A stretch of 64,000 bases of DNA from an uncultured Verrucomicrobiae bacterium. GTDB lineage: Bacteria > Verrucomicrobiota > Verrucomicrobiia > Limisphaerales > JAFGQR01. Under the pieces are notes generated by a model. That model was not told where the DNA came from and searched no databases. It saw only the letters and a program-made list of their open reading frames with translations. Numbering within the stretch: position 1 is the first letter of the stretch; each line of letters begins with the position of its first letter. The position numbers and the translations under genes were made by a program. Location of the stretch: positions 32,001-96,000 of the forward strand of contig CAWBHS010000059.1 of the NCBI GenBank assembly GCA_963788655.1. Reading direction: 5' to 3'. Of this stretch, positions 33,496-39,142 are shown one piece after another.

Positions 33496-33801
33496 CTACT
33501 GGCATAGCTCGTAGGTGATGCCGAGGAAATCCAAGGAAGCCGTGATCCGCTTGACGATCTGCTCTCGCTCGTCGTCCCCAATCAACTGGCCCTCATGTGG
33601 CGAATCCCAGTGCTTCGGAAAATAGCGGCCAGTGGAAATGGCGCGGTTCACTCTCCCCAGAAGCATCTCCGCGTAGATGGCGATTTGCCTCGGTTGGCCG
33701 TCCGCGAGGTGTTCAATGTAAACCAGATCGTCACGTCCGCGAAACGTAACCTCGAAGCCATTCGTATTCACCGCGTGTGAGTTGCCCTTTCGCTTGAACA
33801 T
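33496..33801 (-). CDS. Imm74-like immunity protein (first cassette)
   Basis: GFEVTFRGRDDLVY...AEML...KHWDSPHEGQLIGDDEREQIVKRITASL resembles the Imm74 pattern as recalled. Confidence 0.6.
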   Translation of the reverse strand: MFKRKGNSHAVNTNGFEVTFRGRDDLVYIEHLADGQPRQIAIYAEMLLGRVNRAISTGRYFPKHWDSPHEGQLIGDDEREQIVKRITASLDFLGITYELCQ

Positions 33802-33820
33802 ACCGGTCTGTGCCTCATGT

Positions 33821-33925
33821 CGCCGAACGCTGTTTAGGCGTACCAACGGGTGAAATAACAGAATTAGGCAGAAAAAAGTTGCCTTTTACCGTGATAGGCA
33901 GAAAATTAGCATCCATAACAGAGCA
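33821..33925 (-). promoter_or_regulatory. attI site and intI/cassette promoter region
   Basis: Core gccgaac at 33822-33828 without an attC hairpin; direct repeats taggcagaaaa at 33865 and 33895; AT-rich; lies between intI and the first cassette. Confidence 0.75.
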
Positions 33926-33941: not shown

Positions 33942-35027
33942 ATGACCATGTCAAATCAAAATGACGATAATGGGGAGAAATTTTCAGCCGCTTCCGGGGA
34001 TTCCCAGCGCCACCGTCCTACGGGCAAAGCGGCCCATGGCACGCCCCCGCCTTGGGTGCGCCGGCTGTTTGCCGCCCGGGGCCTGGTGCTGCAGGAGCGC
34101 CAGCTTTATTGGTATGGCGTTCATTGGGAACGGTAACGGAGGTATTTGGAATGGGTGGGGCGATTTCTGGCCTGGCGTGGGGCAGGGTCGCTGGCCGAAG
34201 TGGAGACGCTGGATATTCGGCGTTACCTGGAGACCCTGGCGGTGGAGCGAAGGGTGAGCGCCAGCACGCAAAACCAAGCCTTCAGCGCGCTGCTCTATTT
34301 TTTCGAACAAGGGTTGCACCGGCCCTTGGGGGACTTGAAAGGGACGCTACGGGCCGCCCCCAACCGGCGGCTGTTTGTGGTGCTCAGCCGGGAGGAAGTC
34401 ACGCGTTTGCTGGCGGCGCTGGCGGGGACTTTTAACCTGATGGCGCGACTGCTCTACGGTACGGGCATGCGACTGATGGAATGCTGCCGGCTGCGCGTCA
34501 AAGACATCGACTTCGAACGCGGGCAAATCGTGATCCACGAGGGCAAGGGAAACAAAGACCGGGTGGTGATGTTGCCACAGAAGCTGGCCAGTCCGCTCGA
34601 ACAACACTTGGCGCGGGTCAAGTTGTTGTTTGATGCGGATCGGCGGGCGGGCCTGCCTGGGGTTTATCTGCCGGGCGCGCTGGAGGCGAAATACCCCAAC
34701 GCGGGCAAGGAATGGATCTGGTACTGGGTGTTTCCCGCCAAAAACCTCAGTGTGGATCCGCGGAGCCAAGTGCGTCGCCGTCATCATGTCCATGAGAATG
34801 GATTGCAAAAGGCCGTTCAGAGTGCGAAACGCCTGGCAGGAATCCCCAAGCGGATTGGCTGTCATACCTTAAGGCATTGTTTTGCCACCCATTTGCTGGA
34901 GGCGGGAGCCGATATCCGAACCGTGCAAGAGTTGCTGGGGCATGAGAGCGTGGAAACCACGATGATTTATTTGCACCTGATGCAGAAACCGGGGTACGGC
35001 GTGCGCAGCCCGTTGGATCAGGAGTAG
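33942..35027 (+). CDS. intI: Integron integrase IntI-A (in-frame TAA at 34134-34136; catalytic part 34146-35027 intact)
   Basis: [18 protein letters not shown], the IntI-specific patch [23 protein letters not shown]...[14 protein letters not shown] and LLGH..VETTMIY. Confidence 0.92.
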
Positions 35028-35904
35028 CAAGAGCGCGGAATGGTGCGCCGGGCTTACGGAATGGCAACCGTTTCGGTTTATCCGGCGACGATGGGACGGC
35101 CAATTCCGAACGCCAATGGCCACCATTCACTTCCCCGATTAAGCCGAGCGGTTGGCTGCCGCCGACTTCCCCGAATGCCATAAATGCAGTTTCGCCATTA
35201 CCCTCCGCTGGCACCTCAACTTCTGCCGCCGGGGCCGGGGCGAGGTCACTCATGACTCGGCCCGCGACTTCATCGCCTGGGCCCAGGCCCACAAACAGCC
35301 CGAACCCTGGCAACTGGAAAGCTGGCGCGAGGCCATTCGCTGGTTTTTCCGCGCCGCCAAGGCCGCTCAGGATCGAGCCAGTTCGACGGCGTCGGCCCCC
35401 TCACCCCAGCCCTCTCCCCCGGTGGGGGCGAGGGAGCCGGAGGCTTCAGAAGCCACCCCAACTTCGGCGGTGCCCGCCTGGAAAACGGCCTTTCTGACCG
35501 TCCTCCGGCGCCGGCACTATTCGTATCGGACCGAGCAGAGTTACCTGGTTTGGCTGGAACGCTTTGCGCGGTTTTGCCAGACCGAAGACCTGGAACATCG
35601 GGGGACCGAGGACATCAAAGCGTTTCTGGATGCCCTGGCGCTGGACCAGCGATTGAGTGCCAGCAGTCAACGACAGGCGTTGAACGCAGTGGTGTTTTTG
35701 TTGCGCGAGGTCTTCGGCCAGGAACTGGGAGATTTTTCTGATTACCGTCGCTCGCGCTTGCGGCCGCGCGCCCGGACCTGGCTCACCCGCAACGAAATGG
35801 AAAAGCTGCTCGAGCAATTGGAGGGCGAAGGGGATTGGGCCTTGATGACGCGTGTGGCCTTCGGCGGGGGCTTGCGGCTGACGGAGTTGCTGCGCTTGCG
35901 GGTT

Positions 35905-36188
35905 CACCCCGTGAGATAACCGATCATGTCAACCTATTGCTACGTGTATGTTCTGCGTTCAGCCAAGGACGGTCAGTTTTACGTCGGCCTGACCAGAGAC
36001 CTACGAGCGCGGCTTCAAGCGCACAACCACGGACAGGTTCCCTCCACCAAAAGGCGCGCCCCGCTGGAACTGGTGTATTGGGAGGGTTGCCTCAACGAAG
36101 GCGATGCGGCCCAGCGCGAGAAATACCTGAAGAGCGCGTGGGGGAAGCGCTACATCAAGAATCGTTTGAAACAATATCTCACGGGGTA
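35905..36188 (+). mobile_element. 284-bp inverted-repeat-bounded insertion carrying a GIY-YIG gene
   Basis: Perfect 13-bp IR accccgtgagata (35906-18) / tatctcacggggt (36175-87); removal restores cgg gtt aag gac = RVKD. Confidence 0.9.
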
Positions 36189-36189
36189 A
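35926..36189 (+). CDS. Stand-alone GIY-YIG nuclease (UPF0213/SLX1-like)
   Basis: [26 protein letters not shown]...STK...PLELVYWE...A..RE..LK. Confidence 0.92.
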
Positions 36190-36869
36190 AGGACGTGGAT
36201 TTGGAGCAGGAAATCACCACCGTGCGCGCGGGCAAAGGCGACCGGGATCGACTGGTGCCGCTGGCCCATGTAACGGTGGACGCGTTGCGGACGCACTTGG
36301 CGGTCATTCGTCAGCTTTACGAGGCGGACCGCCGCAAACAGGTGGCCGGGGTGTGGTTGCCCGAGAGCTTGGCCCGCAAATATCCCAATGCCGGCAAGGA
36401 ATGGCCGTGGTTCTGGCTCTGGCCCGATGACCATTTGAGCACCGATCCGCGCAGTGGACTGAAGCGGCGGCATCACCTCTCGGACCGGCTGTACCAGATG
36501 CGCATCAAGGAGGCAGCGCAGCAGGCGGGATTGAACAAGCGGGTGACGCCGCACGTGCTGCGGCATTCCTTTGCCTCCCAATTGCTGGACCGGGGCACCG
36601 ACATTCGAACGCTGCAAGAGTTGCTCGGGCACAAGAGCGTGGAAACCACGATGATTTACACCCACCCGATGCGCAAGCCGGGCCTGGGCGTGCGCAGCCC
36701 GCTGGATCAGGAGGAAGAGGGTTGAGGGTTGTTGGTTGAGCGTTGAGGGACCAGCCCGCCGATAAAGTGACAGCTTGAAACTCGACCGAGCGTTCGTTCG
36801 GACCGGACCATGCGCGCTTCGCCAGCGACGGTTCGATGGAAACTTCTGCCTGTGGGGCGATGGCGTGCG

Positions 36870-37216
36870 CCCTTTACGTGGAACGGGATGGCGCCTTTGT
36901 GCTCGATGTGGACGGCGCCGTCGAAAAGGCCCGGCTCAATGAGTTCCGCCAGAGCAATGTGGCCCTCCTGAAAGAGCGCGATGACCTCAAGCAGCGTTTC
37001 GCGGGGATTGACCCGGAGGAAGTCCGCAAGTTGGCCGAGGAAAAGCGTCAGTTGGAAGCCCAGCAATTGAAGGTCGGCGAGACCGAGAAAGTGATCGAAG
37101 GCCGGCTCAAGACGGTGAAGACGGATTTCGACCAGCAACTGGCCGCCCTAAGCCGTATCAATTCGATTCAACCACCAATGGACACGAATCAACACGAATG
37201 CAGACCGAAGCTTTGA
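36870..37216 (+). pseudogene. Fragment resembling a phage capsid scaffold/coiled-coil protein
   Basis: LYVERDGAFVLDVDGAVEKARLNEFRQSNVALLKE...FAGIDPEEVRKL; no good start, and truncated. Confidence 0.45.
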
Positions 37217-37325
37217 TCGCGGGCCGAATGAAAACGAATGGTCACCAAACAGTAACTCTCACCGTAATGCACCAAAAGCTCTGTTTTTCCAGCGATTCGT
37301 GTCGATTCGTGTGCATTCGTGGTTC
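37170..37325. repeat. Inverted pair of acacgaat-type repeats
   Basis: aaccaccaatggacacgaatcaacacgaat ... attcgtgtcgattcgtgtgcattcgtggtt. Confidence 0.75.
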
Positions 37326-38636: not shown

Positions 38637-38667
38637 ACTGCAACCCAGTGTTGTGCGGTGCCGTTAC

Positions 38668-39142
38668 AGCGTGCTGTTGGCGTCCCGCCGACAGAATCGA
38701 ATGTCGCCGGCACGTCCGAAGGCCCATTTCCGTCGGGAGCGCCTACTTGGGTCCGCTCTGCCGGCAAGATGCCGGCAGCACGCTGGGGCAACGTGCTGTT
38801 GGCGTCCCGCCGGCAGAAACGAAAGCCCGAGGCCCCGGCGAACCGAGGCCGACTTCCGCGGCGCCTGGTGCGCTCGACGTTGCTTGCAATTCGTGGCGTC
38901 CTCTTCCGTTCGGTTTGCCGGCAAGATGCCGGCAACACGTTGGGGCTGGCGCCGAATCGTGGGTGCCCGTTTGGGAAAGGCGGTCAATGAGTCGCGCCAG
39001 CGTTTGGAGTGCGCGGAGCTTGCTCCCGCTTTCCTTTGGCGCCGGGGGACCGCAAAGAACCGAGTCGTGCGTCAGAAATTTGTTCCCTTGTTTCCAGCCG
39101 AAAACGCCGGCAAGCCGGGCGCACTCCAAACGCTTCGCGACG
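38668..39142. repeat. REP-like cluster (two alternating family-B pairs plus a family-A pair)
   Basis: gtgctgttggcgtcccgccg / tgccggcaagatgccggca repeated twice; gcgtttggagtgcgcggagcttgctcccgcttt and the inverse at ~39102. Confidence 0.8.

Follow-up and report, generated by a model that had tools for sequence, protein, structure and literature searches.

The closest known system to the element described here is that of the Ssn nucleases and their NTS/SRM hairpin repeats, represented by SsnA of Neisseria meningitidis. Chenal et al. (Nat Commun 2025; PMC11893778) report that single-domain GIY-YIG proteins of ~94 aa (CDD cd10448) bind hairpin repeats on either side of the genes encoding them, that their cuts in single-stranded DNA fall upstream of these repeats, that two half-oligonucleotides forming the stem suffice for Ssn, and that SsnA modulates transformation in Neisseria, where the repeats number in the hundreds. 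The NTS-ssnA-NTS arrangement is likened there to an insertion sequence (IS), and domestication is proposed. We have analysed a stretch of 64,000 nucleotides (the window) from an uncultured Verrucomicrobiae bacterium (contig CAWBHS010000059.1, positions 32,001 to 96,000), in which positions 35904–36187 are one copy of a widespread family of ~280 bp, a small GIY-YIG nuclease gene lying between complementary ends of 13–16 nt. Here the element splits an integron-type integrase gene. No description of such an element as mobile was found in openly licensed PMC papers and bioRxiv, a coverage that leaves aside subscription journals.

The two systems have much in common. In both, the protein is a single GIY-YIG domain of ~90 aa (87 aa here), inverted repeats of hairpin type are tied to the gene, with gene-less copies elsewhere in the genome (though few here), and the sequence of the repeat follows the lineage of the nuclease. 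One relative (L051), a 72%-identical nuclease gene between two complete mini-hairpins, has the Ssn type of layout and so links the single-hairpin arrangement with that of hairpin, gene and hairpin. The present element differs in that its gene is the loop of one hairpin, the arms enclosing it, in that it sits inside genes and splits them, the target completing its stop codon, and in that there are a handful of copies per genome and not hundreds, gene-less hairpins being few as well (10 + 10 arm matches in 9 Mb). Filled and empty sites, gene-splitting, a single enclosing hairpin, deletion derivatives and tandems are all documented below, whereas they are absent from the available portion of PMC11893778.

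The features of the locus are the following (a bar within a sequence marks a junction of element and target).

34146–35027, plus strand: unsplit paralogous integron-type integrase directly upstream, with the motif RLRVKDID (TIGR02249, 391 bits against a cut-off of 265)

35152–35903, plus strand: N-terminal part of the integron-type integrase, comprising the SAM-like domain and the first stretch of the catalytic one (PF13495, E = 3.9e-24; TIGR02249 positions 8–140)

35903–35918, plus strand: left arm of the inverted repeat (TTCACCCCGTGAGATA), the same 16-mer being kept in 76/86 relatives

35904–36187, plus strand: putative mobile unit of 284 bp in the best boundary model (TCACCCC...CACGGGGT), inserted at T|AAA within Val-Lys codons, as judged from the host frame and tandem junctions

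35926–36189, plus strand: single-domain GIY-YIG nuclease gene, 87 aa (PF01541, E = 7e-16)

36175–36190, plus strand: right arm of the inverted repeat (TATCTCACGGGGTAAA), from the inverted-repeat search, overlapping the final YLTG codons and the stop

36188–36725, plus strand: C-terminal part of the integron-type integrase, the catalytic domain from KDVD on (PF00589 positions 47–168, E = 7.7e-26; TIGR02249 positions 141–314)

Inverted-repeat, Pfam and TIGR02249 searches bear out the first-pass annotation of this locus as a repeat-bounded unit of 284 bp with one 87-aa GIY-YIG open reading frame (ORF) splitting an integrase. The repeat was found again with its perfect core of 13 nt and, when extended, with 16-nt arms complementary at 15 of 16 positions (94%) and 256 nt between them. 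The break in the integrase is exact, TIGR02249 profile positions 140 and 141 falling on either side of the element. The upstream ORF (35152–35919) runs into the left arm, which has stop codons (TGA, TAA) in two of the three incoming frames, and ends at the TAA at 35917–35919, six bases ahead of the nuclease ATG. The nuclease stop (TAA, 36187–36189) lies inside the right arm and takes its T from the element and its AA from the target. The ORFs are as annotated at first pass in both respects, the left repeat giving the N-terminal half of the integrase its stop and the right one holding that of the nuclease. The C-terminal part is left without its own start codon where the element ends. As the frames of the two halves differ by 2, taking out 284 bp fuses ...LRLRV to KDVD... 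in frame, just as had been predicted (compare RLRVKDID in the neighbour at 34146–35027); the element splits the Val codon between its second and third bases (T|AAA). The integrase gene carrying the element is broken. The element DNA is single-copy within the source genome.

Contigs (not raw reads) from Logan support the insertion outside the assembly. They come from three soil-metagenome runs of one study, the only runs listed as holding any of the stretch (small shares, 0.07–0.10) and with no RNA run among them; these may include the source sample. The left junction is crossed by one contig, which is identical (35880–36030), and the right by two (36063–36262 and 36078–36291, with four differences each), all in the filled state. 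A joint across the element, as in an empty site, was not seen in the public contigs, which cannot reveal rare empty sites, and a genome of the same genus gave partial matches of only 70–84% and no close orthologue with an empty site. The closest paralogue of the split integrase (88–90% nucleotide identity), on contig C49 of the source genome (locus L007, 2019–2030, minus strand), has cgc gtc agg tag gac instead of the expected cgc gtc aag gac. It has three extra nucleotides and an in-frame TAG at the codon of the element, T-CAGGT-AGGAC against the T-AA-AGGAC of an exact empty site. This could be an excision scar or chance, the footprint not being derivable from the element ends.

Relatives were collected by a scan of one genome per species. 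This gave 197 relatives, the best 80 loci of which (63–90% identity) were kept, and the arm statistics refer to 86 tblastn matches from these 80, the window and L003, a second locus of the source genome. Both 16-mers are present, within four mismatches, at 76 of the 86 related nuclease genes, one end is present at 7 and neither at 3; among the genes lacking one or both are L003, whose arms are different, and loci truncated where a contig stops. Since the same two 16-mers bound 76/86 relatives, a chance origin of the repeat is excluded at the level of the family. The consensus of the family ends is TTYACCCCGTGAGATA ... TATCTCACGGGGTRAA, and the flanks outside it are variable. The best 80 loci belong to at least nine phyla (Verrucomicrobiota 47, Ignavibacteriota 8, Bacteroidota 7, Acidobacteriota 6 and one Acidoferrum, KSB1 3, Planctomycetota 2, Chloroflexota 2, Chlorobiota 1, Cloacimonadota 1, unplaced 2). 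A profile-free search of 1.84 billion cluster representatives returned 7477 relatives at E ≤ 1e-3 and 991 at E ≤ 1e-10, mostly of 85–130 aa, and tblastn of the nuclease against 72,556 plasmid records gave no match at 1e-5.

L003 (contig C60) carries a nuclease gene of 60% identity that splits a four-helix-bundle (23S_rRNA_IVP) gene, the halves of which match profile positions 7–44 and 48–103, each alone falling below the family cut-off. Its ends differ from those of the window element and are again complementary to one another (GCCTGTGAAATA/TATTTCACAGGC). Among 77 scored metagenome loci related to L003 there are several other arm forms, left and right being complementary in each (e.g. ACCCTGTTAAATA/... 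and CCCCGTTAGAAATTTTTT/...). The split gene is flanked on both sides (L003 1200–1330 and 1925–2060) by runs of a 7-nt tandem repeat (TTCAGCG-like) and GTCCTCC-like units.

Several observations bear on mobility. At least twelve loci have ORF-less mini-hairpins of ~40–100 nt that share these ends, some of them adjacent to a full copy and others not; minis, tandems or both occur in L017, L019, L020, L044, L041/45, L057, L059, L085, L089 and L090. In L019 the mini still has the codons with which the ORF begins and ends, and is therefore an internal deletion. In the source genome the 10 + 10 arm matches compare with 2 + 2 in a reversed-pattern control, and minis lie on contigs C2, C65/C66, C93 and C109. 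That on C2 (9886–9980; L107 1499–1600) is a 95-nt mini placed after codon 13 of a RAYT-like (Y1_Tnp) gene and directly before the Y1_Tnp match at C2:9973; its left junction is blurred because the host codons (..GAIY..) resemble the element arm. Those at C93:8146–8242 and C109:59952–60049 have the same arms and unrelated loops, and occupy the same position in two homologous hosts.

Filled and empty states of one site were seen at two places. Of 61 genomes of one family, 3 carry the element just upstream of the MTHFR start, and among 13 loci inspected 8 were empty, 2 filled and 3 not located. Across these genomes the 3′ end of the 2-Hacid_dh gene is occupied by a full copy, occupied by a deletion derivative or empty. 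The two sites are independent, genome G059 being empty at MTHFR and filled at 2-Hacid_dh and G097 the reverse. The window nuclease, at site 46|47 of PF00589, is 90% identical to that of L017 at site 156, and the nuclease tree (87 columns, with most forks unresolved) groups it with that of L024 at SAM_4 position 67. That the family is, or was, mobile is well supported by these comparisons of sequences. The first-pass annotation had suggested a minimal mobile-type element of a class without a name, and this has held up: genome searches found same-ended copies in large numbers, some with the nuclease cargo and some lacking it.

The nuclease ORF is intact in 71 of 76 copies, the other 5 having one in-frame stop, and the median ratio of non-synonymous to synonymous substitution (dN/dS) is 0.13 over 98 non-saturated pairs. 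On this measure purifying selection on the nuclease is strong. Synonymous saturation has been reached in 2385 of 2485 copy pairs, whereas arm positions 4–16 are nearly invariant, so that the arms are maintained beyond coding needs. These core positions are paired in at least 70 of 76 copies, and a compensated arm pair is found in 9 loci. On either strand, the minimum-energy DNA fold and the centroid fold both contain the terminal stem.

Membership of the GIY-YIG superfamily is clear from the PF01541 match (58.7 bits against a cut-off of 22.6, E = 7e-16) and from the AlphaFold model (predicted local distance difference test score 94.7), which has the GIY-YIG fold with strands at 5–12, 18–23 and 47–55 plus helices. 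In 36 sequences Y8, G21, R29, R64 and E65 are invariant and Y19 and H33 are conserved at 90% or more; the conserved Tyr, Tyr/Gly, Arg and Glu residues presumably have the catalytic roles of their counterparts in other GIY-YIG nucleases. The 87-aa protein is one domain, without a separate DNA-binding domain. The best solved relatives in both fold and sequence are the UPF0213 (URI) proteins (1zg2 BH0048, with a sequence match of E = 1.8e-4, and 1ywl) and the nuclease domains of Slx1 (fold probability 1.00), with TMq of 0.62–0.69 against 0.50 for I-TevI; UvrC also scores lower. Slx1 cuts branched and stem-loop DNA according to the titles of its structure entries, but differs in having a RING/zinc domain and the partner Slx4, and no enclosing repeats are known for UPF0213 proteins. 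Sequence and fold searches of the PDB returned no Ssn entry.

The best boundary model for the family is T|TYACCCC...GGGGT|RAA, its phase being a best model rather than a fact. The conserved block is 288 bp long (TT...AA), and the host frames at several independent in-gene sites (the window, L023, L025, L050, L081, L065, L088, L024, L078 and others) are continuous only with 284 bp removed, from which it follows that four of the six TTY/RAA bases would be host bases. Head-to-tail tandems have the junction GGGGT|TCACCCC in L019, L020, L044, L085 and L090, and their formation can be explained by the new right junction re-creating T|RAA. The unit was at first drawn at 35905–36188; its length of 284 bp stands, but its phase does not, the tandem copies favouring 35904–36187. 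The stop codon in this model is T + RA; among 74 copies it is TAA 54 times and TGA 16 times. The right junction, T|RAA, is conserved and the left flank only weakly patterned (G in 37/74 at position −3, R in 61/74 at position −1). A readout of the target in which element base 2 (Y) would pair with flank base +1 (R) was considered and rejected, all four combinations occurring and C with A being the dominant one.

Host genes were identified by running Pfam on the two longest open stretches, on either strand, beside each junction (236 stretches at 73 loci), and 63 loci gave a match. Integron-type recombinase genes (SAM_4 and/or Phage_integrase) host 42 of the 73 loci. The junctions in them fall at 10 or more profile positions (46|47, 58–59, 139, 146, 156 and 163 of PF00589; ~15, 26–30 and 66–67 of PF13495; and the linker). 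Site 46|47 of PF00589 is occupied in ten loci (the window, L022, L023, L025, L050, L063, L065, L081 and L019/L020) and site 156 in ten. The other 21 loci lie beside or inside genes for MTHFR, FtsY/SRP54, 2-Hacid_dh, GNAT, PNP_UDP_1, alpha/beta hydrolase, AlbA_2-HATPase_c_4, sulfotransferase, ORF6N and YhcG. In five Verrucomicrobiota genomes (L026, L030, L034, L035, L040) the element ends two bases before the MTHFR start (GGGGTAA ATG), so that the nuclease stop and the MTHFR start almost touch.

The neighbouring gene is on the strand of the nuclease in 61 of the 63 Pfam-matched loci, and the two exceptions, L085 and L090, are a duplicated pair. When site classes are counted instead, ~19 are co-oriented and 1 is antisense, the classes being our own grouping and related genomes not being independent. 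A test of orientation by open frames was abandoned in favour of Pfam on the flanks, being confounded by spurious antisense frames in GC-rich DNA. The nuclease start lies 4–8 nt past the left arm in 46 of 70 copies, which leaves no room for a promoter, and in 48/70 a stop ahead of the ATG closes two of the three incoming frames. The element probably relies on the transcript of the host gene; this fits both the co-orientation with host genes and the stops of the left arm just before the ATG.

Known classes of element were compared with these features. A classical IS or miniature inverted-repeat transposable element with terminal inverted repeats was rejected as the element has neither a transposase ORF nor direct repeats at its ends, so that the lack of both a transposase and a target duplication, already remarked on at first pass, is upheld. 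An integron gene cassette does not fit ends of TTYACCCC / GGGGTRAA, with the repeat terminal on both sides and without attC boxes. The consensus of the R″ and R′ boxes of attC is RYYYAAC ... GTTRRRY. Group I and II introns and inteins are likewise rejected, there being no Rfam intron family and the ORF lying outside the host frame; this agrees with the first pass, the only ORF being the GIY-YIG gene. Rfam over 35300–36800 gave no intron or ribozyme family, and its sole match was a chance sR36 (E = 0.18) outside the element. For translational bypass 284 nt is too long, being far beyond any bypass gap known to us.

Two further groups share part of this behaviour. The IS200/IS605 and repetitive extragenic palindrome (REP)/RAYT systems, with their single-strand 'peel and paste' transposition, resemble the element in their hairpin DNA signals, lack of target duplication, strong orientation bias and gene-less hairpin derivatives, and perhaps in inserting by a short specific sequence; here the left flank tends to resemble the 3′ end of the element (G-N-R-T| against GGGT|). 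The element differs from IS200/IS605 in lacking an HUH/Y1 transposase (TnpA), its sole protein being a hydrolytic GIY-YIG nuclease, and in forming one hairpin from both ends where the IS has a subterminal hairpin at each end. GIY-YIG homing endonuclease genes, free-standing or intron-borne, include those of I-TevI and of the Seg proteins of phage T4. They share with the element the catalytic domain, selfish behaviour and the recurrent occupation of conserved motifs in homologous genes, whereas the element has no intron, intein or DNA-binding domain and does have terminal repeats and ORF-less derivatives. One site is indeed recurrently occupied in the family, but the ORF is carried in neither intron nor intein, being separate from the host frame and bounded by stops.

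The reading that we somewhat favour, at slightly better than even confidence, is that of a mobile family whose own nuclease cuts its folded ends, the unit being reinserted at T|RAA. That the nuclease cuts these ends, and that the DNA is then rejoined, we infer from the Ssn precedent and from the anatomy of the element. The two ends would pair in single-stranded DNA to form one hairpin with the gene in its loop. The element nuclease, related to Slx1/UPF0213 and probably most like the Ssn single-strand nucleases, would cut at the foot of the stem. The 5′ cut would fall at T|T and the 3′ cut at T|R, with an offset of two base pairs between them. The freed unit would re-enter at T|RAA, which would supply the last two bases of the nuclease stop, and sealing would fall to a host function, there being no candidate for a joining enzyme inside the element.

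A number of points weigh against this reading. GIY-YIG enzymes hydrolyse DNA and are not known to join it, so that the nuclease alone could not complete transposition. Cleavage, excision and insertion were not observed, nor was an empty-site joint in the public contigs. No near-identical copies were found at different sites of one genome; the duplicated copies L019/L020, L041/L045 and L085/L090 sit in duplicated hosts and give no sign of recent movement. Copy number is low, at 1–4 in each of the five genomes checked. One or two core positions are unpaired in 22 of 76 copies, stem position 3 is a C.A mismatch in 44/76, and shuffled sequence reaches a total folding energy that is just as good (z 0.04 and −1.28). 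Inverted identical binding sites for a protein would equally make the arms co-vary, so that the arms need not pair as a hairpin. The empty allele at the MTHFR site (GAAT-C-ATG against the filled GAAT[...]AAATG) is not the filled one minus 284 bp, and neither is that at the 2-Hacid_dh site (GCGTTTGAG... against GCGT[...]AAAGCT); with such small extra changes in the intergenic empty alleles, the exact cut positions within TTY/RAA are provisional.

Homing is the first rival to be weighed, and we regard it as unlikely, although less so than the others. Here the nuclease would cut an unoccupied paralogous or orthologous site and repair would copy the element from a filled one, with families that are multi-copy and travel horizontally (integron-type integrases, four-helix-bundle and RAYT genes) serving as both template and target. 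The filling of the same codon position in many diverged integrases (46|47 and 156, ten loci each) is what homing would give, as is the recurrence of the L003 lineage at one site of 23S_rRNA_IVP-type genes, and one gene family holds 42/73 loci. The insertion sites are in conserved catalytic motifs, which are typical sites of homing endonuclease genes. Homing has no need of terminal repeats, however, and leaves the arm-only minis and head-to-tail tandems unexplained; it does not account for 90%-identical nucleases at three integrase sites and at unrelated intergenic sites with ends that are always exactly the same, and the 87-aa protein has no separate DNA-binding domain. Transposition directed by the ends appears to fit better than classical homing, as 90%-identical nucleases sit at different integrase sites and the ORF-less copies keep just the arms.

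Mobilisation in trans seems to us still less probable. A host recombinase of hairpins, either an integron-type tyrosine recombinase or a RAYT/IS200-like HUH enzyme, would cut and join, leaving the nuclease an accessory role such as cutting competitors or empty sites. Integron-type tyrosine recombinases and HUH enzymes act on folded single strands and can join DNA, and the elements lie mostly inside genes of such enzymes (integron-type recombinases at 42/73 loci). Four of five genomes with an element have Y1_Tnp genes, and a mini of the source genome lies directly before a Y1_Tnp match (C2:9973). Yet the remaining genome (G042, an incomplete metagenome-assembled genome (MAG) of 2.4 Mb) has no Y1_Tnp match, the element ends have no attC R-box (GTTRRRY), insertions destroy the supposed helper gene, and the arms co-vary with the lineage of the nuclease, which points to the nuclease as the reader of the arms. 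The least probable account, to which we give little credence, is a resident and non-mobile host system of the Ssn type, for example one controlling incoming single-stranded DNA, or a reversible removal at the DNA or RNA level that re-activates the integrase. SsnA of Neisseria does modulate transformation (PMC11893778), intergenic copies with intact ORFs persist by descent in related Verrucomicrobiota, the MTHFR, PNP and 2-Hacid groups clustering in the tree, and both integrase halves in the window are still open. A resident system is hard to reconcile with insertions that split many different genes and with copy numbers far below the hundreds of Neisseria repeats. The on/off switch for the integrase entertained at first pass finds no support: the public contigs contain no excised form, the Rfam search found no ribozyme or intron, and the closest integrase paralogue (C49) is itself broken by a stop at the same site.

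If the end-directed reading is right, the family may be a new class of prokaryotic DNA transposon, in which the sole protein is a GIY-YIG nuclease, the whole element is one single-stranded hairpin cut at its foot, re-entry is at T|RAA with a borrowed stop, and the lineage of the present element preferentially invades genes of hairpin-processing recombinases (integron-type integrases, RAYT). We put this forward tentatively, our confidence in it being rather short of even. Such a class would imply conflict between mobile elements over a shared niche of single-stranded DNA. Should the nuclease drive movement, this would be the smallest autonomous type of bacterial DNA transposon known (~284 bp) and the first with a GIY-YIG enzyme, and the Ssn single-strand nucleases would gain a natural role. 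Matched pairs of nuclease and hairpin with many arm sequences would form a ready set of sequence-specific cutters of single-stranded DNA. The family is large, is found in many uncultivated phyla and silently breaks genes, which matters for the annotation of MAGs.

Some minor features of the neighbourhood were also noted. A segment of ~45 nt in the N-terminal region of the integrase (35395–35440, encoding ..SPQPSPPVGAREP..) has copies of 80–95% identity at dozens of places in this and related genomes and resembles a short dispersed repeat inserted in frame. An ORF at 33496–33846 (minus strand), upstream of the integrase pair, has a weak match to the Imm74 immunity protein (E = 1.2e-6, 29 bits against a cut-off of 27.1). 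Downstream of the pair, at 37173–37311 and 38667–39134, are inverted repeats with 18-nt arms 103 nt apart and 29–35-nt arms 61–66 nt apart, together with direct repeats of 51–54 nt, all unrelated in sequence to the element arms.

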